Source: Bacteroidota bacterium
GTDB lineage: Bacteria > Bacteroidota > Bacteroidia > NS11-12g > UBA955
DNA length: 64,000 nt
Assembly (NCBI GenBank): GCA_027490055.1
Contig: JAIXYV010000106.1
Coordinates: 30,802-94,801 of the forward strand
Direction: 5' to 3'
The notes under the pieces were generated by a model that made no database searches, was not told the origin of the DNA, and worked only from the letters and a program-made list of their open reading frames with translations. Below, in pieces: positions 6,817-41,932 of this stretch (within the stretch, counting starts at the first letter, position 1; every line of letters begins with the position of its first letter). A program made the position numbers and the translations under genes.

Positions 6817-6951
6817 AATTATTTATTTAATGATGCAAATCAAGCACAAGCTTATGCATATCACAAACAAAAATAGGTGTTTGACAAGAAAAATAGGCGA
6901 ATAAACAAAAATAGCGGGTGAGTAACGTCAAATACTTAAAAAGCCATACTT

Positions 6952-7383: not shown

Positions 7384-7412
7384 ACGGGGCACTTAAGGAA
7401 ACAAAACTTTAG

Positions 7413-7420
7413 TATCTTTG
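7413..7420 (+). promoter_or_regulatory. -7 box TATCTTTG, 11 nt upstream of the bshA ATG
   Basis: The sequence matches TAnnTTTG. Confidence 0.4.
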
Positions 7421-7431
7421 TAAGCATTAAG

Positions 7432-8568: not shown

Positions 8569-8571
8569 ACG

Positions 8572-8598
8572 GCTTAATTGGGCCGCTTTTTTTACAGT
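8572..8598 (+). terminator. Weak hairpin plus T7 run after bshA
   Basis: In acggcttaattgggccgcttttttt the stem cggc/gccg is only 4 bp, so this is marginal. Confidence 0.3.
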
Positions 8599-8671
8599 AT
8601 TCTCATAAAAAGAAGACTTTTTATCTAAAAATCTTATTAATTTTTGATTTATAAGCCTGAATGGTTTTAAT

Positions 8672-11944: not shown

Positions 11945-11965
11945 ATTTTGTAAACAAAACTATAA

Positions 11966-12013
11966 TTGGCGTGTTTTAACAAGGGATTTAGGTTAAAGCA
12001 CGCCAATTTTTTT
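11966..12013 (+). terminator. Rho-independent terminator downstream of the BNR gene
   Basis: A 15-bp stem with one mismatch (ttggcgtgttttaac / gttaaagcacgccaa) has an 11-nt loop and is followed by a T7 run. Confidence 0.6.
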
Positions 12014-12075
12014 ATGGCTAAAAATGCCTTATTTTTACCCACTTAAATAAAGAATAAAATAATTTATAATATCAA

Positions 12076-14580
12076 TTGAAGCGGATAATCCTTATAGCAG
12101 TTATTTTGAGCAATTTTATATCGCTAAAGGCTTCGCATATAGTGGGTGGGGAGATATTTTACACCTTTGATGGTAGATCAGGGACAAACAACAACTATAC
12201 AGTCACTTTAAACTTATTTGTAGACTGTAATAATGGCACTCCTCAGTCGATTGAGCAGGACAAATCTGCCAGTTTTAATGTCTTCAGGGTTAATCAATCT
12301 AACTACTCATTGTTTACCAGTTATAGTCTTACCAATAGTAGAACTGGTCCTGTGCGTGTTTCGGATATTTCTTACAAGTGTATTAAAAACATTCCTGATA
12401 TCTGTGTCGATAAATACACTTATACTATAAAAATGAGCTTACCAGTTACAACATTGGGGTACGTTATTACATTTGAAAGGTGTTGCAGAAATTCGACCAC
12501 TACCAATATTTTAAATCCAGGAACTACGGGCGCAACTTATTGGACAAAGATCCCAGGAAGTAATTTAGTATCCAGCGATAACAGTCCTCAGTTTAAGTAT
12601 ACCCCGCCAACTTTTATTTGTTTAAATGCCCCTTTAACTTTCGACCATAGCGCTACTGATAAGGATGGTGATTCTTTGGTGTACGAATTGTATACACCAT
12701 ATGAAGGTGCCAGCAGAAACAATCCAATTCCCAGACCAAGCGCCTCTACTAATCCTGCCAATTTCAGCACTATTTCATGGTCGTCAGGTTCGGGGTATTC
12801 TGTGATTAATCAGATAGATGGAAATCCTTCACTTACTATCAATAGAAAAACTGGCAAACTCACTTTGACACCAACGGTGGCAGGACAGTTTGTGATTGGC
12901 ATAAAAGTATTAGAATATCGCAATGGTGTTTTAATAGGAGAAACAAAGCGGGATGTTCAGTTTAATGCCATTACCTGTGTGTTTGAGGTCGTATCATCCT
13001 TTTATTTGCCATCGGTTTTATGTTCAGCCAGTGAATTGAGTATATTGAATCAAAGTCAGGGTGCTACCAGTTATTCATGGGATTTTGGGGTTGTTACCAG
13101 AAAGGATGATACCTCTAATTTAAAGTCGCCGAAATACAAATACGATACATCCGGAAATTTTGAGATCCGTTTGGTGGCCCGGACGACAAAGTGTGCAGAT
13201 ACATTTTATACAGATGTTTATGTCAAGAAGAATTTTATAGTTGAATTGCCCAAGGATACTCTGTATTGCGGAAAATTTACCAAGACACTCAGCAGTAATA
13301 TACCTAATAAATCCAAGTTATGGAATACCGGCGATACTGGGGTAAGCATCACGGTCAATAAACAGGGTATTTATTGGTTAAAAGTATCTGATGACCCTTG
13401 CGTATCTGTAGATTCTACCGTCATCATTAATGATTTGAGTAAAGTTTATGTAGGACGTGATTCGGTAATCTGTACAGATAAATTTAAACCCTATAATTAT
13501 TTGGGACCTCCTGGCTATAAGTCGTACCAGTGGAGCACCGGTCAGGTAAACGATACATTAAGTGTTGCAAAACCCGGTACCTATTGGCTAAGAACTGTAA
13601 ACAGCAATCAATGTTCATCGGCAGATACATTAGAGATTATTGATTATTCGCCGCCCATATTTGACATTAGAGATACTATTTTCTGTCGCAATACAACAGT
13701 AACATTAGATGCCTTGAATCTCAATTCAGCCACACAGGCAGAGAGTAAATATGTATGGAGTAATGGCTCAAATAGCAGCAGCATAACTGTTGGCAGCATT
13801 GGTCAATACACGGTGTTAGTTAGTAATAAGTATTGTCAGCAAAGCGACACAGCAGTCTTAACTTATATTCAGACTGGCTTGGAATTGGGGCCTGATACTT
13901 TTTACTGCGGACCTGTTAACAGAACAGTGTATGCGCAAAATAATTTTATCAGTTACTTGTGGCAGGATGGAACAACTAACAGTTATGACCAGGCCTTATT
14001 ACCCGGAAAGTATAAAGTAACGATTGTTTCTAAAGATGGATGTGTAGAATCTGATTCTATGATGATCATACAGTATCCTGTTTTGGATCCAGGTTTGGGT
14101 GATGACACAACAGTGTGTATTTCATCAGAAATTTATCTCACAGCAGCAGATGGTATGAGCAGTTATTTGTGGAACAATGGAGCCACATCACAAAAGATTT
14201 CGGCCATGGAAAAGGGGCTCTTTACTGTGACGGTAAGCAACAGTCAGGGTTGTATAGCCAGTGATAGTGTGATGGTAAGCACCGATCCGAATGCAGTGCC
14301 GAATGAATTGTTTATGCCAGATGCCTTTACGCCGAATGACGATGGCACCAATGATGTATTTCCCTCCAACAGGTATAACAATCTAAACTCGTATTACCGT
14401 TTAAAAATCTTTAATCGCTGGGGAGAAGAGATCTTCGAAACTCAAGTAACCGGAGTGCAATGGGACGGCACTTTTAATGGCCAGTTAGCGCCACAGGATG
14501 TGTATGTCTTTTTGGTAAGTTCGGTAGGGTGTGATGGCATGGAGCGCCATTTCAGGGGCACTTTCAATTTACTTCGTTAA
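12076..14580 (+). CDS. Cell-surface protein with a T9SS type B sorting domain (gliding motility-associated C-terminal domain); 834 aa with tandem Cys-containing ~65-aa repeats
   Basis: It has a TTG start and a signal peptide. The C-terminus ...FTPNDDGTNDVF...KIFNRWGEEIFET...WDGTFNG...YVF is a canonical type B/CHU_C domain. The central region has 5 repeats of the pattern C..Y.W..G.T...I.V...G.Y.V.V....C...D...I. Confidence 0.8.
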   Translation: MKRIILIAVILSNFISLKASHIVGGEIFYTFDGRSGTNNNYTVTLNLFVDCNNGTPQSIEQDKSASFNVFRVNQSNYSLFTSYSLTNSRTGPVRVSDISYKCIKNIPDICVDKYTYTIKMSLPVTTLGYVITFERCCRNSTTTNILNPGTTGATYWTKIPGSNLVSSDNSPQFKYTPPTFICLNAPLTFDHSATDKDGDSLVYELYTPYEGASRNNPIPRPSASTNPANFSTISWSSGSGYSVINQIDGNPSLTINRKTGKLTLTPTVAGQFVIGIKVLEYRNGVLIGETKRDVQFNAITCVFEVVSSFYLPSVLCSASELSILNQSQGATSYSWDFGVVTRKDDTSNLKSPKYKYDTSGNFEIRLVARTTKCADTFYTDVYVKKNFIVELPKDTLYCGKFTKTLSSNIPNKSKLWNTGDTGVSITVNKQGIYWLKVSDDPCVSVDSTVIINDLSKVYVGRDSVICTDKFKPYNYLGPPGYKSYQWSTGQVNDTLSVAKPGTYWLRTVNSNQCSSADTLEIIDYSPPIFDIRDTIFCRNTTVTLDALNLNSATQAESKYVWSNGSNSSSITVGSIGQYTVLVSNKYCQQSDTAVLTYIQTGLELGPDTFYCGPVNRTVYAQNNFISYLWQDGTTNSYDQALLPGKYKVTIVSKDGCVESDSMMIIQYPVLDPGLGDDTTVCISSEIYLTAADGMSSYLWNNGATSQKISAMEKGLFTVTVSNSQGCIASDSVMVSTDPNAVPNELFMPDAFTPNDDGTNDVFPSNRYNNLNSYYRLKIFNRWGEEIFETQVTGVQWDGTFNGQLAPQDVYVFLVSSVGCDGMERHFRGTFNLLR

Positions 14581-19662: not shown

Positions 19663-20229
19663 TTAGAGATTGTTCTCGATATAGTCGATAAGACTATGGA
19701 TGCATTTGATATGAATTTCCTGGGCTCTATCGGCGAAGTCAGAATGCGGGGCTCTGATTTCTACATCACATAATTCAGCCATTGCGCCACCGTTTTTTCC
19801 GGTTAGTCCTACTACTTTCATGCCTTTAGCATGAGCAGTTTCAATAGCTTTAAGCACATTTTTAGAATTACCACTGGTACTGATAGCTAATAGAACATCA
19901 CCTTTATTACCAAGGGCTTCGAGGTATCTTGAAAACACAAAATCGTAGCCATAATCGTTACCCACGCAAGCCATATGACTGGCGTCAGAGATAGCGATAG
20001 CTGGAATAGCGGGACGATTGTCTCGGTATCTGCCGGTGAGTTCTTCAGCAAAGTGCATGGCATCACAGAGACTGCCACCATTGCCACAGCTAAGAATTTT
20101 ACCACCATTTTTGATAGCCTCTACCATCAATTGCCCAGCTTTTTCTATAGCGATGAAATTATCTTCATTGGATAGGAAGCTGTTTAAAACAGACTGAGCT
20201 TCGAGGAAATGTTGTTTTATCTGACTCAT
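19663..20229 (-). CDS. gmhA: SIS-domain phosphoheptose isomerase (GmhA-like)
   Basis: SIS motifs are present ([23 protein letters not shown]..., [16 protein letters not shown]). Confidence 0.75.
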
Positions 20230-22397
20230 GGATTAGGGTTACGTTTTTTAAATTCAGCCAAACCATTTTCCAGGTATTTCAGGAACTCTTCGGTATCGAA
20301 TTGCTTTTTATTGATTTCGCTACCAACAGGAGTTTGAAGAAGATTTTCTTTACCATCCAGTAAGCAATATAGAGGTTGAGAAGTAGCACCGAAGTAGCAT
20401 ATTTCAATTTCGGCATTTTTCTTACCGAGTGTAGTGATTTTCTTTTTGCTATATCTGCCAATGAATTGTTCAGAGGCTGGCAGTTGTATGGTTTTGTCGT
20501 CTACATAGAGAGAAGCGATTACAAATTCTTCGCGCAGCATTTTAAGCACACGCGGATCACTCCATACCATTTCTTCCATTTTACGACAGTTAACGCAACC
20601 GTGACCGGTAAAGTCGATGAACAAAGGTTTCTTTAGTTCTTTAGAGCAACTAACAGCTTCATCATAGTCATAATAGCCGTTGAGTCCATGAGGCAGGTGA
20701 AGTTTATCGGCATAGCTAGGTTTTTTGCAGATATTACCGCTTAGACCATTAGCATCTCTGATGCTTCTATTGATATCAAATTCCTGAGTACTCATTGGCG
20801 GCAGGTAGCCTGAAAGGTATTTCAATGGTGCACCCCAAAGACCAGGGATCATGTACACCACAAAAGACAGAACTAAAACACCCATTAGGAGGCGAGGCAC
20901 TTTCAGGAACTTAAGATCGGAGTCGTGGGCAAATTTTAATTTACCTAAAAGGTACAAGCCCATCAGTCCGAAGATGATAATCCACAGTGCCAGATAGACA
21001 TCGCGGTTGAGGATATGCCAGTGGTAGGTTTGATCGGCGATGCTTAAAAACTTGAGGGCGAAAGCCAGTTCAAGAAAACCGATACATACTTTAACACTAT
21101 TGAGCCAGCCTCCGCTTTTAGGCAGAGAATTGAGCCATGATGGGAAGAGCGCGAATAGTGTAAACGGCAGGGCAAAGGCCAGACCGAAACCAAACATAGC
21201 AACAACTGGTCTTAGAAATTCACCACCAGCACTTTTTACGAGTACGTTACCAACGATTGGTCCGGTACAAGAAAAAGACACAATTGCCAGGGTGAGGGCC
21301 ATAAAGAAGGCACCGTAGTATCCACCTTTATCCGCTTCGCGGTCGGCTTTATTGGCGATAGACGAAGGCAGAACGATTTCGAAAGCACCAAAGAAAGAGA
21401 AGGCAAAAATAATAAAGATGACAAAGAAGAGAATATTGGGTAACCAGTGGGTTGAAATCACATTACCGGCGTCGGCACCAAAAGCAAAAGCTACAATGGT
21501 ACCAAGAACTGTGTAGATAAAGATGATTGAAAGTCCGAAGAACATGGCGGTAAGACGGGCTTTCAGTTTACCGCGTTTATCGTTGGTAAAGAAGGCCACG
21601 GTCATAGGGATCATTGGGAACACGCAAGGTGTAAGCAGACCGACTAAGCCAGAGAGGAAGGCAAGAAGAAACAGGCCCCAGTAGTCGACATTATCGGTAT
21701 CGGCGCCCTGACCATTAAAAGTTTTTTTAACGCAAGCGGCGGTATCAGCAAAGCTTGAGAGTTTATAATTGCAAGAAGGACAATCAGAGTTGGTGGTATC
21801 AGCAGGAGAGACGGCGGGGTTAGCTGGAATAATTGCAGCAGTATCGGCAGGCACTACCTCAGGTTCGGCAGACGTTTCAGCGGTTTGATCGCAGGTCATT
21901 TCCTTGCCAGAGGCGGTAAATCCGGCAGAGAAGCGCAAAGGATTCATCATACCAAAGTTAAAGCAGGTACTTTCTGTGCACCATTGACCCTCGTATGTTC
22001 CAGAGATTTTTCCAGTATTTTTAATGACCTTTATTTTCTGACGGAATTCAGCTTTATTGAAGAATTCGCCCACTTCACATTTGAAGATTTCGTCCATGAA
22101 GTGCTTATCGCCAACGCTGTAAAGCTCACCGACTTTGCAGAACGCTTTTGAATCGTCGAAGTTAATAACGAATTTAAGCGGACCGAATTCACATTTGCTG
22201 TAGGTACTGTATAGATGAAATCCAGCAGGAATATCACATTTAAAGATCACTTCAATAACATCACCGGTTTTGGGGTTATTATTACTAAAGGACACTTTAA
22301 GGACAGGAGGAGCTGGTTCGGCAGGCGCTTGAGCGAGCACAGAGCTTGAAACAAGGAGCGTAATCAGGCTTAAACAGAAAAGTTTAAATTGATGCAT
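20226..22397 (-). CDS. dsbD: Thiol:disulfide interchange protein DsbD (N-terminal DsbD-alpha domain, central TM transporter with CxxC, C-terminal thioredoxin-like domain)
   Basis: The product has a signal peptide, a central 8-TM region with [10 protein letters not shown], and a C-terminal thioredoxin fold with [13 protein letters not shown]. Its stop overlaps the gmhA start (ATGA). Confidence 0.85.
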
Positions 22398-23945: not shown

Positions 23946-26900
23946 ATGAAAAGATTAATTACAAATTTAAAGGCTCTGAAACTCATGCTAGCGGCCCCGT
24001 TATTGGGACTGTTTGGTATGACAGCCAGTGCTCAAGCGCCGTGGTGTGACGGATTTCACATGTACAACAACACGACTTACTACTCGTCGTCTAACTACAT
24101 CTTTGCATTAGATCAAATTAGAATCAGCAGTGGTGGTACTGTGTTGTTCAATGTTCCAGCAGATGGATTCAGCGGTGGTAGCACTTGCGGATCTGAATGG
24201 AGATTAGCTAACCCTACTTCAAGAGCGATCGACCTGACAGCAGGTAACTCTTACACAGTAGAGGCTAGTGGATCAAGTGGATCTTATGCTTACGGTGGAT
24301 CTATTGGTGTTTTCGTTGACTACAACAACGACAAAGACTTTTTAGATGCTGGTGAGTATCAAGGTGCATTCACAGTACCTGGTACTGTTCAGACTCCATC
24401 TACTTTAGGTTCAAGAACTTTTACAGTTCCTTGTAACATTACTCCAAGTGCAACTAGATTGCGTGTAGTTGGTAACTATTCTGGTTATCCAATGAACCAA
24501 TCTTATGGTTGTTCTACATGTAGTGGACCTCCTTATTATGGTGAGACTGTTGACTTTTCAATCAACTTAGTATTACCTACAAGTGTATCTGCTAACTTTA
24601 TCGCTCCAACTAACACTTGGGTTAAAGTAGTTAACAAATTCATCAACAGCAATCAGTCTGGTTACACAGAACATGCATGGGATGCTAACAACGATGGTTC
24701 TTATGAGCAAAGAAGCGTAGTTCCAAACTACAGCAATCCTCAGTTCATGTGGACTACTCCAGGTACTAAATGTGTTAAATTGAGATCTACTAACTGTTTA
24801 GGTAGAGATTCAATCGTAAAATGTTTCAACGTTCAATCTCCTACTGCAGTTCCTGTAGTGGATTTTGTTGCTGACAGAGTAACTATCGAGCAATACCAGT
24901 CAATGAGATTGTTTGACTTATCTACTAACGGTCCTTGGTCATGGACTTGGGATGTATATGATTCAACTACATATGCTTCATCAGGTTACTATCCAAACTT
25001 AACAGATGGTGATTTATATTCAGATCCATGGGGTAACGGTAACAATGAGTTCACTCAGAATCCTGAGTTTGCTTTTGACATCCCAGGTTGCTATACTATC
25101 GTAATGACTTGTAAGAACGACGTTGGTCCTTCTGCAACAAAAAGAAAAGTATGTTATGTAACAGTAACATTACCTACACAATATAACTTAGGTTATGGTA
25201 CTTATGGTCCTAACAACGATAACGTAGTTGGTAGCACTAGTGGTACTATCTTCGATGATGGTGGTCCAAATCTTAACTATGGTAACAACCAAGGTTTAGG
25301 TTCACGTTCATTCTTACAAATCACACCTTGTAATGCAAAGAAAATTGTATTAACAATGTCAAGATTGAAGTTCAAAGATGCTGGTGACAAATTAAGCGTT
25401 TGGGATGGTAAATCTCCAGGCGGTCCTGGTACTACATTACTTGCTACTTGGTCAGTTGGTGCAAAAGCGCCTCAGAAAGTAACTGCAACCAGCGGTAGCA
25501 TGTATTTATTATTTGAAGCTGATGCAGCTGGTGTAGACTCAGGTTATGCTGGTTCTTACACTTCAGAACTTGGCCCAGCTACTTTACCTAGTCCAGCATT
25601 CACACCTAACACTGTACCTAGCTACAACAGCACACCTGTTAAGTTCACCAACACTACTCAAAACATTGTGGGTGTACCTACATGGGAATGGACAATTGAT
25701 GGTGCTCAGGTTGCCAACAATACTAAAAAAGACTTCAACTACACCTTCTACACAGATGGTCAGTATGATGTTTGTTTAGAAATCAAATCTTGTGTTGGTA
25801 ACAACAAATCTTGCCAAAAGATTGATGTTATCACTCCAAACACTCAAACCAGCTTAGACTTTATCGCTACAAACCGTCGTCCGAACATCAACGTAGATTT
25901 CTCTACATTGATCCCGGTTTCAGATAATGCTAACAGATTCGAGTGGACAATCTTCCCGACTTCTTACACTTTAATGAACCCACCAGCTTCTCCATCTACT
26001 TACGGTGCAGGTTTCGTTAAATACAATGCAACTCCTGGTGATTCAATTCCAAAACCAAGACTGAAGTTTACAGCTCCTGGTTGTTACACAATCACTTTGA
26101 AAGCATACAATTCATTAGATCCTACCAATACTTCTAGAACAATTGTTAAAAACAAATTCATTTGCGCTCTAGACTATTGCAAACCATCTTCTTACATTTT
26201 AAGTTCAGACGTAGGAATCAACAGAGTACGTATTGTTGATGGAACTACTGACCTGATCAACAACTATTCTACTTCAGGTGACGTTGCTTACACTGATTAC
26301 AGTGCAACTGTAAAAGCTAACTTAACTTATGGTAAAACATACACTTTAGAAGTATCAAGAACTAGCAACGTTGACCCAGCTAACAGAAAAGGTTGGATTG
26401 ACTGGAACATCGACGGTGACTTTGATGATGCAGGTGAGCAGATTTTCTTCGAAACCAGCACATACAATCAAGTTTACACTACTACATTCACTGTTCCTGC
26501 ATTGTCAGCTTCATTTGAAGGTTTAACTAAAATGCGTATTGCAGCTAACTATAACAACGAAAGCACTACTGCTTGTGGTCCAATCACAGCTGGTGAATAC
26601 GAAGATTACGGTTTAGTATTAGCAAACGACAATACACCTCCAGTAATTACCTTAACAGGTAGCGATACTGTAAGAATCGAGGTAGGTTCTTCATACACTG
26701 ATGCTGGTGCAACTGCATTCGATGCTTCAGAAGGTAACATCACAGGTAACCTTGTAATGACTACTGACTTAGATGCAGCAGTAACAGGTTTATACACTGT
26801 TGAGTACAACGTAACTGACAAATCTGGTAACAAAGCAGTTCCTGCTATCCGTACCATCATTGTTGTTAACGACTTAACAAAACCAATCTTAACTCTGAAC

Positions 26901-28139
26901 CCAGGTGCTCCTGGTTGTATCGAGGCTGACAGAGACAATCTGCCATATGTTGATCCAGGTGCAACTGCAACTGACAACAAAGCGCCTTTCAATCTGACAT
27001 CTTCTATTGTAACTTCAGGTTCTGTTGATACAAGAACAATTGGCAACTATGTAATCACTTACTATGTACAAGACGTAGCTGGTAACTCTGTAACTAAAAC
27101 AAGAAACGTTTGTGTTGAAGATACCAAAAAGCCTACTATCTTATCTTTAGGTGATACTTCAGTTCAAATTGGTAGTGTTTGGTTAGATCAGACTTCAGTT
27201 GAAGACAGATATGACAACAACCCAGTATTAACTAAAGAGTGGGGCTTCAACGGTCCGGTTAACACTTTAGTAAGAAGAACTTACCCTGTAACCTACTATG
27301 CAGTAGATCAAAGCGGTAACCAAGCTACTCCAGTAGTGAGAAACTACAGAGTTGACGACTTCATTGCTCCAGTTATTAGCTTAAACACTTTTGACATTGT
27401 AAACCATGAAGTAAGAACTCCATACAATTCAGTTGCTGCTTCAGTAACTGATAACTACTACCCAGCTGGTCAAGTAAGTTTAGTGAAAATTTCTAGCAAC
27501 GTTAACCCTAACGTATTAGGAACTTACACTGAAGTATTTGAAGCTATCGACGGTTCTGGTAACGTTACAACTAAAACAAGAACTGTTATGGTTGTTGATA
27601 CAAAAGCTCCAAGAATCTGGGGTGAAATCATCCACGGTTGCGTAGGTGAAAACATCTGGCCAATGTGGGGTATTTCAACTACTGACAACTACTACAGTCC
27701 AGCTCAGTTGAAGCCACTTGTTGAGGTTGTTAACCAAAACGTAAATATTTGGGAAGAAGGTATCTACACTATCACTTACAGAGTAACTGATCCAAGTGGA
27801 AATACTTCTAACGAATTCACTAGAATGGTATACTTCACCTACTGGCCTAAATGTACTAACAGTACAGTATCAGTTGATGATTTAAAATCAGTAGAAGAAA
27901 GAGTAAGCGTATACCCTAACCCAAGTAACGGTATCGTAAACATCGACCTGCAAGGTGCATTAGTACAAACTGCAACACTTGAAGTTTACAATGCTATGGG
28001 TCAGTTAGTAGTAAGCAAAAACTACAACGAAGTAAGCGGTAAATTTGATGTAGACTTAAGCGGTAATGCAGCTGGTGTTTACACTATCAAGTTAATTGCT
28101 AACGGCGAAGTAGTAACTAAGCGCGTAGTACTTCAGTAA
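23946..28139 (+). CDS. T9SS cargo protein, paralog A (1397 aa): signal peptide, N-terminal GEVED-type module, CUB-like domain, second GEVED region, 5 Ig-like (DUF5011/HYR-type) repeats and a T9SS type A C-terminal sorting domain
   Basis: The sorting domain is ...VSVYPNPSNGIVNIDLQGALVQTATLEVYNAMGQLV...AGVYTIKLIANGEVVTKRVVLQ. GEVED-like motifs are present (GETVDFSINL, GEYEDYGLVL). The Ig-like repeats start PPVITLTGSDTVRIEVGSSYTDAGATAFDASEGNITG... Confidence 0.85.
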   Translation: MKRLITNLKALKLMLAAPLLGLFGMTASAQAPWCDGFHMYNNTTYYSSSNYIFALDQIRISSGGTVLFNVPADGFSGGSTCGSEWRLANPTSRAIDLTAGNSYTVEASGSSGSYAYGGSIGVFVDYNNDKDFLDAGEYQGAFTVPGTVQTPSTLGSRTFTVPCNITPSATRLRVVGNYSGYPMNQSYGCSTCSGPPYYGETVDFSINLVLPTSVSANFIAPTNTWVKVVNKFINSNQSGYTEHAWDANNDGSYEQRSVVPNYSNPQFMWTTPGTKCVKLRSTNCLGRDSIVKCFNVQSPTAVPVVDFVADRVTIEQYQSMRLFDLSTNGPWSWTWDVYDSTTYASSGYYPNLTDGDLYSDPWGNGNNEFTQNPEFAFDIPGCYTIVMTCKNDVGPSATKRKVCYVTVTLPTQYNLGYGTYGPNNDNVVGSTSGTIFDDGGPNLNYGNNQGLGSRSFLQITPCNAKKIVLTMSRLKFKDAGDKLSVWDGKSPGGPGTTLLATWSVGAKAPQKVTATSGSMYLLFEADAAGVDSGYAGSYTSELGPATLPSPAFTPNTVPSYNSTPVKFTNTTQNIVGVPTWEWTIDGAQVANNTKKDFNYTFYTDGQYDVCLEIKSCVGNNKSCQKIDVITPNTQTSLDFIATNRRPNINVDFSTLIPVSDNANRFEWTIFPTSYTLMNPPASPSTYGAGFVKYNATPGDSIPKPRLKFTAPGCYTITLKAYNSLDPTNTSRTIVKNKFICALDYCKPSSYILSSDVGINRVRIVDGTTDLINNYSTSGDVAYTDYSATVKANLTYGKTYTLEVSRTSNVDPANRKGWIDWNIDGDFDDAGEQIFFETSTYNQVYTTTFTVPALSASFEGLTKMRIAANYNNESTTACGPITAGEYEDYGLVLANDNTPPVITLTGSDTVRIEVGSSYTDAGATAFDASEGNITGNLVMTTDLDAAVTGLYTVEYNVTDKSGNKAVPAIRTIIVVNDLTKPILTLNPGAPGCIEADRDNLPYVDPGATATDNKAPFNLTSSIVTSGSVDTRTIGNYVITYYVQDVAGNSVTKTRNVCVEDTKKPTILSLGDTSVQIGSVWLDQTSVEDRYDNNPVLTKEWGFNGPVNTLVRRTYPVTYYAVDQSGNQATPVVRNYRVDDFIAPVISLNTFDIVNHEVRTPYNSVAASVTDNYYPAGQVSLVKISSNVNPNVLGTYTEVFEAIDGSGNVTTKTRTVMVVDTKAPRIWGEIIHGCVGENIWPMWGISTTDNYYSPAQLKPLVEVVNQNVNIWEEGIYTITYRVTDPSGNTSNEFTRMVYFTYWPKCTNSTVSVDDLKSVEERVSVYPNPSNGIVNIDLQGALVQTATLEVYNAMGQLVVSKNYNEVSGKFDVDLSGNAAGVYTIKLIANGEVVTKRVVLQ

Positions 28140-28160
28140 TTAATCAATCATTCATAATAA

Positions 28161-28192
28161 AGCGCACCGGCTCTGGCTGGTGCGCTTTTTTT
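28161..28192 (+). terminator. Rho-independent terminator after paralog A
   Basis: The stem gcgcacc...ggtgcgc (7 bp plus extension) is followed by a T7 run. Confidence 0.7.
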
Positions 28193-28480
28193 ATGCAGTC
28201 ATTTTCCTGTCATATTAGTGTTGGAACCAAGTCATTTTTGTTAATTTTGATTTTATTTATTAAAAATATTATTACATTTGAATATTAAATCAATTGTAAT
28301 TGAATGTTGAACTTGTGATTTGAATCAATCATTTTATTTATATTTATTCTAAATAAGATATCAAGGTTTTGAAAAACAATTCTCTATACAGCTCATTTAT
28401 TAATAATTTAACTTTTTGCAACTATGTGAAAAAAAATTATTAAGAAATTGATATTAAATTGCCAACCTATTAAAAAAAAT

Positions 28481-31400
28481 ATGAATAAGTTTACTAATTA
28501 CTACAATGAAAAGATGGGCTTTGCCCGGTACTTTGTACTGGCATTGTTTCTTCTTTTAGGAGTCAGTACTGCATCTGCTCAGTATTGTGCATCCAACGCA
28601 ACATCAACGGCAGACGAGGATATCGCCTCGGTTTATTTGAAAGGTAACACGGTAACATTAAACAATGTTTCTGCTGCTCCAACCTGTCAGACATACACCG
28701 ATTGGACTGCCTTAACACCTGTTGATTTATCTGCAGGAAGACAGTATTCAATTGTTATCACTGAAAGTACTTGTAACGGTCACTATACTTATGCATGTAA
28801 TGCATGGATTGACTACAACAAGAACAATACTTTTGAGTCTGGTGAGGCTGTAGCTCCAACTTCTCAATCTAAAAATGGTGCTAACGCTGTATTTACTTAC
28901 ACTTGGACAGTACCATGTAACATCACACCTGGAAACACCAGAATGAGAGTTGTTATGATTGAGGGTGCGGTTTCAAACCCTTCAAGTGCCTGCGGTACTT
29001 ATACCTGGGGAGAGACTGAAGATTACACAGTTAACTTACAGTTACCAACCTCAGTGAATGCCAACTTTATCGCACCAAGTTCAGCTTGGGTAAAGGCGGT
29101 AGTTAAATTTATCAATCAGAACCCAACAGGGTATATTTCACATTCTTGGAATGCCAACAACGATGCCACTATCGAGGCTCCGAATAGCGTAAACTTTAAT
29201 TATACATGGACTACTCCAGGTAACAAATGTGTTAAATTAAAGTCTACAAACTGTTTGGGCTCTGATTCAATTGTTAAGTGTTTGAATGTTGTTGCACCAA
29301 CTGCAGTGCCTGTTGCGGATTTTGTTGCTGACAGAGTAACAATTGAGCAATATGGTTCAATGAGATTATATGATTTATCATCTAATGGTCCTTGGGATTG
29401 GACATGGGATGTTTATGATTCAACTACTTATGCCTCTTCAGGTTTCTATCCAAGTTTAGCAACAGGTGAGCTTTATTCAGATCCATGGGGTAATGGAAAC
29501 AATGAATTCTCACAGAATCCTGAGTTCGCATTCGACTATCCTGGTTGTTATACTATTGTATTGACAAGTAAGAACGATGTTGGCCCTTCAGTTACTAAAA
29601 GAAAAGTTTGTTATATAACAGTAACATTACCTACTCAATACAACTTAGGTTACGGTACTTATGGTCCTAACAACGACAACGTAGTTGGTAGTTCAGCAGG
29701 TACAATATTTGATGATGGCGGTCCGGGTTTAAACTATGGTAACAACCAAGGTTTAGGTTCACGTTCATTCCTTCAGATCACCCCATGTAACGCTAAAAAG
29801 ATCACTTTGAAAATGACAACTTTGAAATTCAAAGATGCGGGTGATAAATTAAGAGTTTGGGATGGTAAGACTCCAGGTGGTCCTGGTACAACATTATTAG
29901 CTACCTGGACCATGGGTTCAAAAGCTCCAGCAGCAGTAGTTGCTACCAGCGGTAGCATGTATTTATTATTTGAAGCAGATGCTGCAGGTGTAGATTCAGG
30001 TTATGCTGGTTCTTATACTTCAGAACTTGGTCCAGCTACTGTACCAGTTCCAGCTTTCTCTCCAAATTCAGTACCTAGCTATAACAGCACGCCAATATTC
30101 TTTACTAACACTACTCAAAATATTGTTGGTGTTCCTACATGGGAATGGACAATTGATGGCGCTCAGGTTAATAATAATACTGGCAAAGATTTCCGTTATA
30201 CTTTCTATACTGATGGTCAGTATGAAGTATGTGCTGAGATCAAATCTTGTGTTGGTAACAATAAGACTTGTAAAACCATTGATGTAATCACACCGAATCA
30301 ACAAACAATGTTGGATTTCACTGCTTCAAGCAGAAGACCTAACATTAACGTAGATATCGTATCATTGATTCCTTCAAGCGATAATGCTAACAGATTTGAG
30401 TGGACAATCTTCCCGACTTCTTATACTTTAATGAACCCACCAGCTTCTCCATCTACTTATGGAACTGGTTTCGTTAAATACAATGCAACTCCTGGTGATT
30501 CAATTCCAAAACCAAGACTGAAGTTTAATTCACCTGGTTGTTATACAATCACTTTGAAAGCTTACAATTCATTGGATCCTACCAATACTACAAAAACAGT
30601 AGTAAAGAATAAATTCATCTGTGCTTTAGACTATTGTTTACCTGCTTCTTACATCTTAAGTACTGATGTTGGAATCAACAGAGTTCGTGTTGTTGATGGT
30701 ACAAATGACCTTATCAATAACTACACTACATCTGGTGATGTATCTTATACTGATTATAGCAGCACTGTAAAAGCTAATTTAACATACGGTAAATCTTATA
30801 CTATTGAAGTATCAAGAACTGGAAATGTTGACCCGGCTAACAGAAAAGCTTGGATTGACTGGAACATCGACGGTGACTTTGATGATGCAGGTGAGCAAAT
30901 CCTTACTGAGTCTAGCTCTTACAACCAGGTTTACAGCACTACATTTACAGTACCAGCATTATCTGCTTCGTTTGAAGGTTCAACAAGATTACGTGTTGCT
31001 ACTAATTATAACAACGAAAATACTACTGCTTGTGGACCGATTACAGCTGGTGAGTACGAAGATTACGGTATCGTTTTAGCGAATGACAACATGCCTCCGG
31101 TCATTACTTTATTAGGTAGTGATACAGTGAGAATCGAAGTTGGTTCTAACTATACTGACGCTGGTGCAACTGCCTATGATGCTTCAGAAGGTAATATCAG
31201 CAGCAGTTTAGTAATGACTACTGACTTAGATGCAGCGGTTACAGGTTTATACACTGTAGAGTACAATGTAACGGACAAATCTGGCAACAGAGCAGTTCCG
31301 GCTATTCGTACAATCATTGTAGTTAACGACTTAACTAAGCCAATCTTAACGCTTAACCCAGGAACTTCTGGTTGTATTGAAGCAAGAAGAGATAATCTTC

Positions 31401-32596
31401 CATACGTTGATCCAGGTGCAACTGCAACTGATAACAAAGCGCCATTCAATTTGAATTCTTCAATTGTTACTACTGGTACAGTTGATACAAGAACAATTGG
31501 CAACTATGTAATCACTTACTATGTGCAAGACGTAGCTGGTAACTCTGTAACAAAAACAAGAAACGTTTGTGTTGAAGATACCAAAGCTCCAATGGTAGAA
31601 GTTCTAGGTGATACTTCAATTCAGATCGGAAGTGTTTGGATTGATCAGACATCTGCAACTGATGCCTATGATTTGACTCCAACTCTTAACAAAACATGGT
31701 GGACAGTACCAGTTAATACTTTAATAAGAGCTACATACAGCGTAACTTATGAAGCAGTTGACGGTTCAGGTAATATTTCGAATCCAGCTACTGTAAGACA
31801 TTACAGAGTTGATGACTTCATTCCTCCTGTTATTAGTTTAAACACATTTGATATAGTTCAGCATGAGGTAAGAACGCCTTACAACTCTATTGCTGCAACT
31901 GTTTCTGATAACTACTATAGCTCAGGTCAGGTTTCAATCATCAGAAAATCAAGCAATGTTAATTACAATGTTTTAGGCACATATACCGAAGTATTCGAAG
32001 CTATCGATGGATCAGGTAACATTTCAACTAAAACCAGAACAGTTAAAGTGGTAGATACAAAATCTCCTACACTTTGGGGTCAGGTTATCCATGGTTGCGT
32101 TGGTGAAAACATCTGGCCAATGTGGGGTCTGTCAACTACTGACAACTACTACAGTCCAAGTCAGTTATTACCATTAGTAGAAGTGGTTAGTCAAAACGTA
32201 AACATTTGGGAAGAAGGTATCTACTCTATCACTTACAGAGTAACCGACCCAAGTGGTAATACATCTGAAGAGTTCACCAGATTGGCGTACTTCACTTACT
32301 GGCCAAAATGTTACAACAGTACAGTATCAGTTGATGATCTGAAATCTGTTGAAGAGAAAGTAAGCGTATACCCTAACCCAAGTAACGGTATCGTAAACAT
32401 CGACCTGCAAGGTGCATTAGCGCAAACTGCAACCCTTGAAGTTTACAATGCAATGGGTCAGCTGGTAGCAAGCAAAAACTACAGCGAAGTAAGCGGTAAA
32501 TTTGATGTAGACTTAAGAGGTAATGCAGCTGGTGTTTACACTATCAAGTTAATTGCTAACGGCGAAGTAGTAACTAAACGCGTAGTGCTTCAGTAA
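28481..32596 (+). CDS. T9SS cargo protein, paralog B (~1372 aa from MNKFTNYY; the ORF-track start at 28448 is probably spurious): same architecture as paralog A with a divergent N-terminal module
   Basis: The signal peptide is FVLALFLLLGVSTASAQ. From ~aa 200 onward it aligns with paralog A at ~85-90% identity. The C-terminal sorting domain is near-identical to A. Confidence 0.85.
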   Translation: MNKFTNYYNEKMGFARYFVLALFLLLGVSTASAQYCASNATSTADEDIASVYLKGNTVTLNNVSAAPTCQTYTDWTALTPVDLSAGRQYSIVITESTCNGHYTYACNAWIDYNKNNTFESGEAVAPTSQSKNGANAVFTYTWTVPCNITPGNTRMRVVMIEGAVSNPSSACGTYTWGETEDYTVNLQLPTSVNANFIAPSSAWVKAVVKFINQNPTGYISHSWNANNDATIEAPNSVNFNYTWTTPGNKCVKLKSTNCLGSDSIVKCLNVVAPTAVPVADFVADRVTIEQYGSMRLYDLSSNGPWDWTWDVYDSTTYASSGFYPSLATGELYSDPWGNGNNEFSQNPEFAFDYPGCYTIVLTSKNDVGPSVTKRKVCYITVTLPTQYNLGYGTYGPNNDNVVGSSAGTIFDDGGPGLNYGNNQGLGSRSFLQITPCNAKKITLKMTTLKFKDAGDKLRVWDGKTPGGPGTTLLATWTMGSKAPAAVVATSGSMYLLFEADAAGVDSGYAGSYTSELGPATVPVPAFSPNSVPSYNSTPIFFTNTTQNIVGVPTWEWTIDGAQVNNNTGKDFRYTFYTDGQYEVCAEIKSCVGNNKTCKTIDVITPNQQTMLDFTASSRRPNINVDIVSLIPSSDNANRFEWTIFPTSYTLMNPPASPSTYGTGFVKYNATPGDSIPKPRLKFNSPGCYTITLKAYNSLDPTNTTKTVVKNKFICALDYCLPASYILSTDVGINRVRVVDGTNDLINNYTTSGDVSYTDYSSTVKANLTYGKSYTIEVSRTGNVDPANRKAWIDWNIDGDFDDAGEQILTESSSYNQVYSTTFTVPALSASFEGSTRLRVATNYNNENTTACGPITAGEYEDYGIVLANDNMPPVITLLGSDTVRIEVGSNYTDAGATAYDASEGNISSSLVMTTDLDAAVTGLYTVEYNVTDKSGNRAVPAIRTIIVVNDLTKPILTLNPGTSGCIEARRDNLPYVDPGATATDNKAPFNLNSSIVTTGTVDTRTIGNYVITYYVQDVAGNSVTKTRNVCVEDTKAPMVEVLGDTSIQIGSVWIDQTSATDAYDLTPTLNKTWWTVPVNTLIRATYSVTYEAVDGSGNISNPATVRHYRVDDFIPPVISLNTFDIVQHEVRTPYNSIAATVSDNYYSSGQVSIIRKSSNVNYNVLGTYTEVFEAIDGSGNISTKTRTVKVVDTKSPTLWGQVIHGCVGENIWPMWGLSTTDNYYSPSQLLPLVEVVSQNVNIWEEGIYSITYRVTDPSGNTSEEFTRLAYFTYWPKCYNSTVSVDDLKSVEEKVSVYPNPSNGIVNIDLQGALAQTATLEVYNAMGQLVASKNYSEVSGKFDVDLRGNAAGVYTIKLIANGEVVTKRVVLQ

Positions 32597-34620: not shown

Positions 34621-37600
34621 TTGAAGAAAAAGTACTTTTCAAAAAACACTTTTTTTCTATTTTGTTCTTTGTTTATGGCATTGATTATCAATGCTCAGGG
34701 GAATAGATTGTCTTTTGTGGTTACCGGACCGAAGAATCTTTCCATCTGCGGGGTTAATGATTCAGCCTTTGTTGAAGCCTACAATATCTCGTCAGGACCA
34801 GTTAACAACATTACAATTAAACTAATTTTACCATCAGGCATCAATTATGTCAAAGGTTCTTTCTTTGGCACTGGTATTAGCGAAGCCAATGTTACAAATC
34901 TCAATCAACCTATTTTTAATGTTCCCAATTTATTATTAGCTAAGAATACAAAATTCAGGGTATTGCTAACGGCAGATTGCAACTTACTTACCTTTCTAAA
35001 TAACAGCAGTACGCCAACAGTAAGTTTGCGGGCAGATTATACGGGTAATTTTGATGTTGGCAGTTCAATACCGTATTCTGTAAGGGTGCCATCTGTGCAA
35101 TACGGCACTGTAACGAACCTATCATATACAGGTGATGTAGCTACCAAATTCACAAGAAGTATCACCATTGGAAATTATGGCAAAGGACCATTACGAGAGA
35201 TAAAACTTACCAGATATAATGGAAAGGATATTCAAACATTCTTTGTTAACAAAGGGAATACCGTATACAAGGGAGATACAGTAATAACCACATTTAACAC
35301 CAATCATTTCAAAACGGTAGGCAATCTTGACACATTTCTTGATCAGAATGAAACAATCACATTTACAGATTCCAATTTAATTAAAGCCTGTAAATTACTT
35401 AATACTAATTTCGAATTAAGTTGGGGTTGTGGTGGAAAATCCTGCCAGGTTAGTAAGTTATCAGGCTCTGCTTTAATCAGCAATAAAACACCAACATTAA
35501 AGGCAATTCCCTTGCCTGTTTATCCAACATGTTATAACAACAATACGTTTAAATCCGAAGTCCGTTTTGTGAATATCGGTAATATGCCTGCGATAGCTCC
35601 CCGACTTGCAATATCCTCCAACTATTACTATATGTTCTCGAGTTTTGATACTGGATCGATACGCATGAAAGTTGGTTTTAAGGGTACCTGGTACAAACCA
35701 ATCAAGGACAGCACAACGGGTTCATATAACTTAGGTTATTATGGCTGTATCGGTTTATATCCGATTGGATTATTCAGAGTTAAATGTCCGGATTTAAAAC
35801 CGAATGATACGGTCTATCTGACATGGAATACCATATCGTGTACACCACCCCCTTGTAGCAACGCCAGTATGGTGGTCAATAGCTGGGCTTATTATGCCGA
35901 TTTTAAAGATCAGTGTAAGAATCTGAAAACAGTTCCATGGGCCTGGGGAAAGGTTTACGACCAGCACTATTTTACGGGTTCTACTTTTAGTCCGACCGAC
36001 CTTATAGCCAATCAAACCGGCGAGTTCAGAACTTATATCAATTCAGCAAGTCTGTTAAATCGCAATTCATCTGCCTCCTACATAGTAGATATCATTTTAC
36101 CGAAGGGTCTCACTCACAGCAAGCAAAAGAAAGATTTCTATTTTATCAATTCAGATTTAACTGCCAACTGGAATCCAGACAGTATTGTTCAGAAAGGCGA
36201 TACTGTGAGGGCCTATTTTCCGCATCCTGTTCCAATCAATTTAACAGGTGCAGAATTGGTATATTATTTAAAAGCCGATTGTTCTAAGAGTGGTGCCAAT
36301 GGCAACCAAAACATTACTACTCAAATACGCTATATACCAGATAGAACCTGTGGAAGTAAAGAATGGATATTTTTGTATTGCCAGACACAGCAAATAAAAA
36401 TACATTGTATCAGTAATTGTGCTGGCGGTATGAAGTTCAGAAATTTTAAAGTACAAAGGATAAGTTTCGGAAGACCAGACAATGACAATGATGGAAAACC
36501 TGACGCCAGTGGTAGTTTAGATACATTAAGAGTAAGGGAAGAACGTTGCATTTATGGAGACACCATCCAGGCAGAGTATTTCGGAATAGTTAAACGGACT
36601 AGCTCGATAATTACCTGGAGAAATGCTTATATTGAAAGTACAATAACCAATGGCAGGAATCTTGACGTGGCGGGCATTCAATTATTGGTTTGGCGTCGTG
36701 GCGTAACCTTGTCTCTCAATTGTAATCAGATTAAAAGCTGGAAGACAGTGAGTGGTACAACCGCTACATTTAAAATTGATATCAGCACAGATTCAATGCC
36801 TAATTGTGTGTCTTCAGGATTTAGGTACAGCAATGATGATAGTGTGGTAGTGAAAGTAAAGTACAGGGTCAACGGTAATCTTGGTGCTACCATTCAGAAT
36901 TTAAATTTCAGCAATAGGTTTTATACCAGCAATGTCAATAATCCGACCAGCAATACCAACAAGTTTCAATGTGATACTTTTTCTGGCCAGATGATACTGG
37001 CAGGGTATTTTTTCACTACCTGTTGCAGTGATAATTATCAATTAAATTCGTGCGGTACTGTTAGCGTCAATAATTATTTTTATCTTGGTTTAGGCGGAAA
37101 CAGTTATGGCGGCAATAACTATTTTCCATATGAGTATCGAAATTTTGCAAAATTACGATCCATAAGATTTTATATGCCTGCCGGCATGAAAATGAAAAAC
37201 GCCTATATTGGCCAGTACCGTACAAGTGGTTCTAACAGGACCACATTAGAGACAAAAGATTCGTTGCGACCATTGAACATCAATGCGAATCCGATGGTCT
37301 TTGAAGTAGGCAAATTTTTCAAGGATTCGACAGGAGGTGTTATTAATCTGAGTGATGATGGTTTCCATGGCTATTTTGTAGCACAGATGGATCCTACATG
37401 CGAGATTCAGACTGGTGATCCTAACCTTATTAAATACGATTTTGTTTTTGAGCGCAAAGGCATATTTGGTAATACTTTAGATACGATAAGTTCAGGATTT
37501 ACAGACAAACTGATTTACAACAAACCTGTCTTTACTGTTAAACCCGTATCACCAACAATTTATGCGGCACAGGATACTGCAGAGTGGGAATTAGTATTCA

Positions 37601-40600
37601 CAAATTATTCTGCCAGTTTCAGTAATACCAACTCTTGGTTTGCGCCCGATAACAGTGGAGCTATTAAAGTGGTTCAGATCAGAGATGGCGGAACAAAAGA
37701 CACCTTGATGCCTTCAAAAAATGGGGTTTATAAGTTAGGAACAATACCTTTTAACACCACCCGAAAATTTAAAGTTAGGGCCATTTATAATTCTTGTAAG
37801 AAGGACAGTGTAATCTTGTATGCTGGCTGGAATTGCGCAGGCTATCCGAATGATTTAGCCAGTTATCCTTGCGTAAAAGAGCGAATACCATTGTATCTTG
37901 AACCACAGAACACACAGTATCAGGTGACATTAACAGATTCTGTCAGAGTGGCTGATTTATGTGCCTCTACACCCTACACCATGACCATAGAGAATATTGG
38001 TGCTACAGCGGGTTATTCTACAAAAGCCATCATTAATTTACCTATTGGAATGACAGTGGATCCTGGCTCCTGTTATATCCGTTATCCGCATAAGAATGCT
38101 AAGTCATCTTTATCTAATCCAGTATTAAAAAGTGGTACCACCTATGAGTGGAACTTATCTGGATTAAATACCACTATAGCCAATGGTTTTAAAGGGGTAA
38201 GCGATACTAATAAAAACAAAATAATCATCTATTTCAGAGTAAAAACTTCTTGTGATTATTCGAGTGGAAATTATATTCGAGCAAGTGCTTCCGGCAATAT
38301 AAAATGTGGCGATCCAATCATGGTTTATCCAGCCATTAGCAATCCATTAAACATTAAAGGTGTAACACGTCCATATTATACCTTACTGAAGGTTGAATCT
38401 GACTCTATTTTTCCTTGTGAAAAGCCAAGTAAAGTTCGAGTAAAAATTATTAATCTTGGTCCGGGTAAAACAGGCTCTGAAGACAAGTATCAAGCTATAT
38501 TGGTTCCAGGATTAAGCTACAACAGTAGTATGTATACAGCAAGCTATAACGCGCCTGTAGACAGTTTAACCACTACCAGAAACATTAACGGTGCAACAGA
38601 AGTAGAATTTAGTTTAAGAGATAGCATACAGCCTGGTGACAGTATGTATTTTGATTTCGGATTTAATAGCGATGGCAGATTTTTGAATTGCGGGACAGTT
38701 GACTTATACAGTCAGGCAGCAGTTAAACAAGAGGTAACTTGTGTATCCAATAATTCGAAGTGTAAAATCAATGTTGTTACCGGTAATAATTTACTGAAGC
38801 CGACTGTAGTAAAAGGGTCAGTTGGCTTTTCTGGTTTAAAAACTAAAATATTAAGTACAGCAAACGATTCAGAAATCCTATCGATGCAATACCGCATCAC
38901 GAATACCAGTTTCAGAATTGCATCGCCCAATACTATAGTTTATAAACTGGTCTATGATAAAAACAGTTCGGGTACAGTCAATTCTGGTGATATCGTTGCC
39001 TTTACAGATACGATTAAAACAGGCTTAGGTAAAAACAACTTTACAGATATTACTAAAACGATTAAAGTAAAAGCAGGACAGTCGTGTGCCCTATTTATTG
39101 CCTTAGATTCTGCCAGTTGCAGTTGTGGCTTTGCTTATGCAAAATTTCCGGTTCCGGGATTGCAGAATGCTGGCATAGATCAATCACTTTGTAGCGGTGA
39201 TACAATCAAGCTAGGTGTTACCAAAGTAAACGGTTACCGATATCTTTGGACCCCAGGAAGTGAGTTTATTTCTGATACAGTAGCTCAGCCAGTTGCTGTG
39301 ATGGAGAACACAGATAGTGCAGGAATTTTTAAGAATTATATTCTTACAACCTATAGAGGATTCTGCAATAGTAAAGACACTGTAAAAGTGGAGATTTATA
39401 AGTTACCAGCATTAAGATTACTGCAAAAAGACACATCAATTTGTGATGGAAATCAGGTTGTTTTAAAAGCAGTTTCTAAAGGAGGAACAGGTTTGCATAC
39501 CATCAAATGGAGTCCTGCTAAAACAGTGAAAGACAGCACAAAATTTACCACTTCCACCAAACCTTTAAAGACGCAAACGTATGTTGCCAGCATTGTAGAC
39601 GCTAAGCAATGCAAAGCAAAGGACAGTATGCGCATAGTGGTTTATCAGAATCCAATAGCAAAATTCACTTATCCTGAAACTTGTTTAAATTTACCATTGT
39701 TGTTAAGTGATAGCAGCAAAGTTAGTGGAGATACTATCAGTCTGCGAAAGTGGAACTTTAATGGTATTGATACCACGCAGATTAAAGACTGGTTGATAGA
39801 TTTACAAGGTAATTCAGATGCTTTAGTTTCCTTAACTATCAGAAGTGGATTTGGCTGTGAAGATACGATCGTTAAAACAGTGTATTTGAATCCATATGTT
39901 GTTGCAGATTTTTCGACCAAAGATGTATGTTTTGGAGACTCTGTAAAATTTGTCAATCTTAGCACACTATCAAAAGGCGTAATACAATCTAATATTTGGG
40001 ATTTCGGCGATGCTATAACCAGCGTAAAGACTCAAACCAAACATTTATACAATGCTGCAGACACTTATCAGGTAAAGCTTATCTCAATTAGTGATAAAAA
40101 TTGCAACGATACCATTGCAAAATCTGTAATTGTTTATCCGCGACCATCAACAGCATTTAGTATAAGTAATGTATGTCTTAAGGACAGTATTCATGCTTTT
40201 AATAGCTCAACAATTGTAAATGATTCTATTACCAGTCAGTGGTGGTATATTAATAAGGATACGATAAGTCAACAGCATTTAACATATTTATTGAGCTATG
40301 ATACATCGTATATTTTAACATTAAAGACATCAACAGCATTTGGCTGCAGAGACAGTTTAAGTAAATCAGTAGAGGTATACACAAATCCTAAAGCGCTATT
40401 TAATGTTAATCCTGTTTGTGAAGGCAAGAAGAGCACTGTTATCAGTAGTTCAAGCATTAGAAAAGGTGCTATTTCGTCCTACAATTATGCAGTTAGTGAT
40501 GGCAATAGTTTTACCAATCAGAATTTTGTCCATCAATTTGCCAAAGGCGATACTTTTGATATTAGATTAATTGTTACTTCTTCTAACAATTGCAGAGATA

Positions 40601-41883: not shown

Positions 41884-41914
41884 CAGCTCATTTTTCTATT
41901 TCACTTTAATATTG

Positions 41915-41922
41915 TATATTTG
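41915..41922 (+). promoter_or_regulatory. -7 box TATATTTG upstream of the small T9SS cargo gene
   Basis: The sequence matches TAnnTTTG. Confidence 0.4.
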
Positions 41923-41932
41923 CAATACAACA

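Follow-up and report, generated by a model that had tools for sequence, protein, structure and literature searches.

Two neighbouring genes on the plus strand of a Bacteroidota genome encode proteins that differ strongly at their N-terminal ends and resemble each other closely over the rest of their length, which raises the question of whether one of them has received a foreign tip or whether it is the remainder of the two proteins that has been kept alike. Both genes lie in a 64,000-nucleotide (nt) stretch of contig JAIXYV010000106.1 (assembly GCA_027490055.1, positions 30,802 to 94,801), called here the window, to which all coordinates refer unless another locus is named. Gene A occupies 23946-28139 (1397 amino acids, aa) and gene B, counted from its ATG, 28481-32596 (1371 aa); we refer to these two genes of the window as winA and winB, to comparison loci by L-numbers and to homologous proteins by P-numbers. 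The list of open reading frames (ORFs), the translations and the Pfam matches agree in describing them as a tandem of ~1,400-aa proteins predicted to be cargo of the type IX secretion system (T9SS). A first-pass annotation of this DNA had read the change from low to high identity between them as replacement of a tip module by recombination rather than drift. Recombination is supported by incompatible trees and by fourfold-degenerate sites, but it appears to have overwritten the body and not to have imported the tip: very probably, A and B carry old, distinct heads on bodies that have been homogenised by gene conversion within each genome.

Architecture of the two proteins

Genes A and B share the same succession of Pfam domains, namely an N-terminal GEVED, PKD-like domains, an internal GEVED, four Bact_surface_Ig-like (DUF5011)/HYR domains and a C-terminal Por_Secre_tail, and for gene A this structure is backed by ~90 collinear homologues. 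In A, a predicted signal peptide (aa 1-29, 23946-24032, with the cleavage site placed by eye between ...TASA and QAPWC) is followed by the A-type GEVED head, an immunoglobulin (Ig)-like linker, PKD and CUB-like domains, a second GEVED (aa ~745-892, 26178-26621; best Pfam stretch aa 815-889, motif YCKP...GEYEDY), the four Bact_surface_Ig-like (DUF5011)/HYR domains and the T9SS sorting domain. The head, or tip, is a GEVED-type beta-sandwich of subtype A1 covering aa 30-209 (24033-24572), as supported by Pfam, hhalign, AlphaFold2 (AF2) models and trees. The linker covers aa 210-297 (24573-24836) according to the change-point analysis, its alternative forms and the second beta domain of the AF2 model, and its variable part (aa ~241-285) exists in an A form and a B/C form. 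We call body the region from aa 501 to the stop codon (25446-28139), which was recognised by a four-point scan, bootstrapped neighbour-joining (NJ) trees and runs of identity. Gene B has the architecture of A with a B-type head at aa 34-186 (QYCASNATSTADEDI...GETEDYTVNLQ, 28580-29038), recognised by Pfam, AF2 and B tips found elsewhere; its linker part in the B/C form extends over 29039-29206 and reaches B aa ~242, the position that pairs with A aa 268 in the alignment. The start of B is most likely the ATG at 28481 and not the TTG at 28448 where the mechanical ORF begins, as several homologues (P0016 and P0019) begin at the corresponding place with MNKFTN or MNMFTN; others extend upstream of it (MILNCQPI...).

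The type-A sorting domains lie at the extreme C-termini, at aa 1322-1395 of A (27909-28130) and aa 1296-1369 of B (32366-32587), and score 49.8 and 48.5 bits, respectively, against PF18962 (Por_Secre_tail), whose cut-off is 27 bits, as expected of T9SS type-A cargo. With the four Bact_surface_Ig-like stretches, the PKD domains and this sorting domain, the proteins possess the stalk repeats and the anchor of fibrillar adhesin-like proteins. No known adhesive Pfam family matched A or B, GEVED belonging to the stalk-associated class (PMC10952558). The GC content is ~0.37-0.41 in 2-kb windows spanning both genes. A hydrophobic N-terminus ending in ASA and followed by Gln can be read in both sequences, and both predicted mature proteins would begin with this Gln (24033 in A, QAPWC; 28580 in B, QYC), with the first invariant Cys 2-4 residues further on.

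Identity between A and B rises in two steps

In the pairwise alignment the N-terminal ~180 mature residues of A and B are far less alike than the remainder. A change-point model placed two breaks, at A residues 157 and 268 (support interval of the second, 267-275), which separate segments of 24%, 51% and 86% identity and raise the log-likelihood from -418 without a break to -322. The sharp transition reported in the first-pass annotation is real to the extent that breaks fit far better than uniform identity, but it consists of two steps and not of one fixed point. The strings quoted there are all present in the translations (APWCDGFHMYNNTTYY, VPCNITPSATRLRVV, GETVDFSINL and LPTSVSANFIAP in A; QYCASNATSTADEDIASVYLKGN, VPCNITPGNTRMRVV, GETEDYTVNL and LPTSVNANFIAP in B). 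The downstream sequence, which it called essentially identical, is ~65% identical in aa 210-289 and ~85% thereafter (81% at the nt level). The high plateau begins at ~24747 (24747-24770), ~60 codons 3' of the LPTSV junction, and lies beyond the interval 23946-24560 given in that annotation.

Synonymous divergence (dS) downstream is ~0.4-1.4 in most windows, with a ratio of nonsynonymous to synonymous divergence (dN/dS) of ~0.1 in the body; dN between the heads reaches 0.6-0.9. The last ~300 nt, sorting domain included (27839-28139 in A, 32296-32596 in B), are 91-95% identical, and the similarity ends at the stop codon. The longest runs of exact identity (59-62 nt) are found in the body and at the 3' end, against the 81% nt background. 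A second island of low identity, with ~55-60% aa identity and saturated dS, occurs at 27186-27335 (A aa ~1081-1130) in a C-terminal Ig-like domain, flanked by sequence that is 85-90% identical; it may be another region that escapes conversion.

The heads are divergent homologues

Tip A and tip B both match GEVED (PF20009), with 44.4 and 78.2 bits against a gathering threshold of 24.4 bits, as does the internal module. The profiles of A-type and B-type tips align over 142 columns at 30% identity (hhalign probability 99.6%, E = 6e-24), and three Cys, two Gly, two Asp and one Arg are invariant in the alignment of all tip types. The structures predicted by AF2 for each head with its next domain are confident (pLDDT 91.7 for A and 93.0 for B) and all-beta, and Foldseek returned the same best match in the PDB for both, 9x1i_A. 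Heads A and B are homologous along nearly their whole length, contrary to the earlier impression that they share only a GEVED-type motif and one block. That annotation had counted membership of one tight family in profile searches as evidence against its reading: the two tips do belong to one family, but at 30% identity not to a tight one. By sequence, searches of the tips against solved structures gave nothing credible, with only chance-level haemagglutinin matches for tip A (E ~0.3) and none for tip B.

The GEVED domain was defined from the NR3 region of the fibrillar adhesins CshA/CshB of Streptococcus gordonii, and is described there as ending in a GEVED-like motif that the next stalk domain follows within 12-17 residues (PMC10952558). 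In our heads the corresponding motif is GETVDF in A and GETEDY in B, followed by NL.LPTSV and the Ig-like domain. The Pfam model spans only the C-terminal ~80 residues of a module of ~150-180 aa, and the ~90 residues that precede the match form one beta-sandwich with it in the AF2 models. These ~90 residues contain no further Pfam domain, the NR2 lectin-like domain characteristic of a CshA/B-type head included.

A family from uncultured Bacteroidia with several head types

A full-length search yielded ~90 collinear homologues of 1,350-1,410 aa, and a scan of species-representative genomes yielded 65 loci. All of these relatives come from metagenome-assembled genomes (MAGs) of uncultured Bacteroidia/Bacteroidota, many of them lake-derived to judge from their isolate names. 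At least three types of N-terminal head occur, A (APWCDG...), B (QYC(T/A)SNATSTADEDI...) and C (NPAPYCKPTF...), ~30% identical to one another, with further kinds in more distant members. Tandem A-B pairs between the same flanking genes recur in at least six lineages (L003, L004, L012, L013, L042 and the window), A always following a LysM-glucosaminidase gene and B preceding the serine hydroxymethyltransferase (SHMT) gene; in other genomes the two genes lie at separate contig ends, a result to be anticipated when the assembly breaks within the repeat. More distant paralogs, B', occur elsewhere in the same genomes, with tips 0.5-0.6 and bodies 0.60-0.65 identical to winB.

L017, from another MAG, holds a tandem of two A-type genes (5599-9807 and 9989-14182 of that locus) with 100% protein identity from ~aa 81 to the end; all their differences lie in the signal peptide and in ~50 residues at the start of the head. 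The pair could reflect a very recent duplication or conversion whose 5' limit falls inside the head, or an assembly artefact.

Heads and bodies tell different histories

Throughout the family, body identity to winA or winB tracks the lineage and not the head type, and in the body tree the A, B and C heads are interleaved within the clade of the window, more distant clades consisting of A heads only or of B heads only. A direct comparison was made for three lineages in which the tandem pair is complete (the window, L003 and L012). The bodies of A and B within one genome are 0.85, 0.85 and 0.77 identical, and those of orthologous B genes between genomes only 0.78, 0.73 and 0.72. The B tips of the same three lineages are 0.84-0.88 identical, and B tips share 84-93% identity between genomes in which the bodies share only 72-78%. 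Four-point sums favour the topology ((A1,A2),(B1,B2)) from aa 31 to ~355 and mostly ((A1,B1),(A2,B2)) after ~aa 355-500, overwhelmingly so in the sorting domain, whose extreme within-genome similarity is seen in L003 and L012 as well. NJ trees change in the same way: the head (aa 31-268) gives a B clade with 100% and an A clade with 98% bootstrap support, aa 269-500 still give a B clade with 84%, and aa 501-1397 give within-genome clades with 98%, 100% and 100% and clades by type with 0%.

Sliding-window dS in the head is saturated and alignment-dependent, for which reason fourfold-degenerate sites at identical aligned residues were used instead. The proportion of such sites that differ between A and B falls from 27/46 in head and linker to 109/325 in the body (p = 0.0016 for head versus body) and to 6/42 in the sorting domain (p = 0.0125 for body versus sorting domain). 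Taken with the trees, these differences indicate that the split between the heads is older than that between the bodies and that the 3' end was homogenised most recently. The pair thus displays the pattern of concerted evolution, with paralogs closer to each other in the body, an orthologous topology in the head and homogenisation at synonymous sites. Comparison with the distant clades adds an older layer: winB is B'-like only up to ~aa 290 and A-like in its C-terminal half, which places an older joining or overwriting event near aa 268-290, and the later, lineage-specific conversions have 5' limits further downstream. A tips are hypervariable and evolve fast even between orthologs, and B tips are conserved; this fits different selective regimes on the two specificities.

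Proposed history of the pair and alternative explanations

We propose that A and B are tandem paralogs of one ~1,400-aa family of T9SS-secreted, Ig-repeat cell-surface proteins in uncultured Bacteroidia. As in other type-A T9SS cargo, their C-terminal sorting domain should anchor them to the cell, in which case the mature N-terminus, that is, the ~150-180-aa GEVED head, would be the distal end. From this position and from its evolutionary rate, the head may be taken as the putative ligand-binding part. We take the head types of the family, of which there are at least three (A, B and C), to be old and each inherited vertically, and the A-B tandem between the LysM-glucosaminidase and SHMT genes would predate the split of several lineages. 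Downstream of ~codon 270-500 the genes would have been homogenised repeatedly by gene conversion within each genome, most recently in the sorting domain, a mechanism with good support in the data. The conversion tracts would stop before the head, probably because the heads are too divergent to pair, because homogenised heads are selected against, or for both reasons; selection presumably has a part in keeping the heads distinct. The transition in identity would then mark the 5' limit of past conversion tracts together with a domain boundary and not the scar of an imported tip. Separately, the conserved GET.D..NL.LPTS..ANF.AP junction lets heads and linker forms reassort between members and strains.

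The proposal that a recent duplicate pair had one of its tips replaced by a foreign module, through a single recombination event at the LPTSV junction, accounts for the pronounced rise in identity close to where the GEVED module ends, and reassortment at this junction is real elsewhere in the family. It can also point to the proteins close to B, which are chimeric relative to the distant B' paralogs and carry a B head on a body nested among A-type bodies; at some old time a B head must have been joined to an A-like body, or a B body overwritten. We nevertheless consider it unlikely for the pair in the window. The bodies differ at ~19% of nucleotides, with dS of ~0.4-1.4, so the pair is not recent, and in several genomes each of the two heads has an ortholog at the same position. 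It is at aa 268, and not at the junction, that the plateau begins; aa 269-500 are still grouped by type with the 84% support given above, and our searches found no full-length A tip outside this architecture. Moreover, the grouping of bodies within genomes recurs independently in three lineages, which demands repeated events on the body and not one import of a tip.

Nor does an old duplication without any recombination, in which head evolution was fast, relaxed or driven by positive selection and the bodies were held by strong purifying selection, explain the data well, even if a body dN/dS of ~0.1 beside a head dN of 0.6-0.9, the rapid change of A tips between orthologs and the coincidence of the first identity step with domain boundaries are what it would predict. 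Differences in rate cannot produce within-genome body clades with 98-100% support alongside heads that cluster by type. In 3/3 lineage pairs the four-point condition prefers the concerted topology, and at conserved residues synonymous divergence is significantly higher in head than in body. We regard this explanation as very improbable, and a programmed exchange of tips by an invertase or shufflon, silent cassettes or a diversity-generating retroelement as more improbable still. Several head types and subtypes do reassort at one conserved junction, and A tips are hypervariable in comparison with B tips, as a dedicated system might produce; against this, the heads are flanked by no convincing inverted repeats, no recombinase or reverse transcriptase is encoded among the neighbouring genes, the window contains no promoterless tip cassettes (A and B are complete genes with a terminator between them), and the differences are seen between genomes and not within one. 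A shufflon or other invertible element, in particular, was rejected, inverted repeats and recombinase both being missing.

Several observations weigh against the proposed history, or limit how far it can be taken. No long, perfectly identical conversion tract joins A and B in the window, the longest runs being those of 59-62 nt, and with body dS mostly at 0.4-1.4 the conversion is old or patchy. In distant lineages (the A-far and B' clades) the bodies of A and B have not been homogenised, which means that concerted evolution is not universal in the family. The trees are NJ trees based on protein p-distances. The comparison sequences are almost all metagenome-assembled contigs, in which paralogous repeats can lead to breaks or false joins during assembly, and contig ends are where several of the A and B genes are located; saturation of synonymous sites is, with these contigs and the distance-based trees, the main caveat. 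As for the function of the head, GEVED has been described as always accompanying the ligand-binding NR2 domain and as a stalk-associated, not an adhesive, domain (PMC10952558).

Reassortment of heads and linkers elsewhere in the family

Judged by its flanking genes, the closest relative of the window is L002 (DsbD 92%, SIS 97% and SHMT 94% identical), and here a tip has changed. Its A gene is 62% identical to winA in the head and 93% in the remainder, with a sharp break at aa ~198-205, and its head shares 90% identity with the head of P0004, a protein with a more distant body. P0003 and P0006 are a similar case, in that their bodies are close and their head subtypes different. In P0008 and P0009 an A head is joined to a linker of the B/C form, and in P0027 a C head to a linker of the A form. 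The junction GET.D..NL.LPTS..ANF.AP is therefore a recurrent recombination site in the family; it is not the explanation of the contrast between A and B in the window. We also considered whether the L002 gene might be a deletion hybrid between A and B, and rejected this, as it is A-like over its whole length (0.93 to winA versus 0.84 to winB).

These discordant combinations of tip, linker and body are compatible both with transfer between species and with old polymorphism, and the data do not distinguish the two. Tentatively, the GEVED heads (A1, A2, A3, B and C) and the two linker forms might behave as population-level cassettes, exchanged between freshwater Bacteroidia species by homologous recombination at GET.D..NL.LPTS..ANF, with the bodies kept compatible within each genome by gene conversion, a possibility that we hold to be less likely than not. 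If true, cassette exchange would uncouple binding or antigenic specificity from a species-adapted stalk and sorting domain.

Two loci, L002 (7071-11225) and L021 (7061-11260), contain only an A-type gene between the LysM-glucosaminidase and SHMT genes and no B gene; the single gene of L021, which encodes P0008, is the one with an A head on a linker of the B/C type.

The tips on other architectures

The first-pass annotation had envisaged that each tip might also sit on other stalks, and searches with each tip on its own did not bear this out for full-length tips. Word-indexed searches returned only short fragments and two small proteins made of a GEVED plus a sorting domain. An exhaustive HMMER search with tip A gave 564 cluster representatives at E <= 0.001, most of which match the GEVED core only (query ~45-179), in internal positions, in up to 13 copies and in proteins of up to 6,000 aa. 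A full-length N-terminal tip A on another architecture was not found by HMMER: all such matches were on the same stalk (35-46% identity) or in truncated ORFs. The two small proteins, P0130 and P0131 (231-244 aa), consist solely of a B-like GEVED (37% identical) fused directly to a T9SS sorting domain and are, in effect, heads without a stalk.

Relation to known surface proteins

Divergent specificity domains on homogenised scaffolds are already familiar from the adhesin and outer-membrane paralogs of other bacteria, and it is the protein family described here that is uncharacterised. In babA/babB and other hop paralogs of Helicobacter pylori, a divergent ligand-binding region is kept while the remainder is homogenised within genomes by gene conversion, such that the genes cluster by strain in trees built from the conserved part and by type in trees built from the variable part. 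The present case belongs to another phylum, fold and secretion route and concerns tandem paralogs with a variable N-terminal head; in contrast with babA/babB, homogenisation is old and patchy (81% nt identity) and has not left near-identical sequences. Mosaic phage tail fibres and receptor-binding proteins are alike in their working, with a conserved structural part and specificity modules that reassort at a conserved junction; here, however, the setting is a non-phage, chromosomal housekeeping context and the dominant process appears to be the homogenisation of the conserved part and not the import of tips.

SprB and RemA of Flavobacterium and GhpA of Aureispira have in common with A and B a signal peptide (predicted in A and B), long runs of Ig-like and PKD domains and a C-terminal T9SS sorting domain, and fragments of GhpA, a grappling-hook protein, were among the Foldseek matches of the head models. 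There is no sequence relationship with these proteins beyond generic Ig-like folds, and the A/B family differs from them in its fixed architecture of ~1,370-1,400 aa with two GEVED modules. The likeness to CshA/CshB lies in the GEVED modules: the heads and one internal module pass PF20009 and end in a GE(T/V)(V/E)D motif with the next stalk domain within 12-17 residues, and the theme of domain shuffling developed for fibrillar adhesins applies here too (PMC10952558). Unlike in CshA, no NR2 lectin-like domain lies upstream and the GEVED-type module is itself the extreme mature N-terminus, and the anchor is the T9SS sorting domain of Bacteroidota instead of a Gram-positive cell-wall anchor.

The locus offers a clean, replicated example, in uncultured freshwater Bacteroidota, of distinct specificity modules being kept on scaffolds that gene conversion probably keeps alike. 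It cautions against taking a sharp step in identity between paralogs for the mark of an imported module, since it may be the conserved side that has moved. It also defines a predicted T9SS cargo family of ~1,400 aa with at least three head types, of which two are now available as confident models and could be targets for ligand screens. For the annotation of GEVED domains, it indicates that the full fold has about twice the length of the Pfam model and can occupy the distal tip as well as the interior of a stalk.

Genomic surroundings

The genes around A and B encode a Mg-chelatase-like ATPase, a SIS protein, DsbD, the LysM-glucosaminidase, SHMT and a PKD protein, with more T9SS cargo genes nearby. 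A strong hairpin resembling an intrinsic terminator (28159-28198, plus strand; a 13 bp stem with 8 GC pairs and a T run) lies 20 nt past the stop codon of A, which makes it probable that A and B are separate transcription units. The DsbD-like thiol:disulfide interchange gene (20226-22397, minus strand) is two genes upstream of the genes with Cys-rich heads and keeps this position in most related loci; this could be a coincidence or could bear on how disulfides form in the heads. The window contains three more genes for putative T9SS cargo, at 12076-14580, 34621-41883 and 41912-42547. Two of them are PKD-rich with sorting domains of the CHU_C type (834 and 2420 aa) and the third encodes a 211-aa protein with a weak Por_Secre_tail match; the gene for the 2420-aa protein is syntenic with SHMT in related loci.

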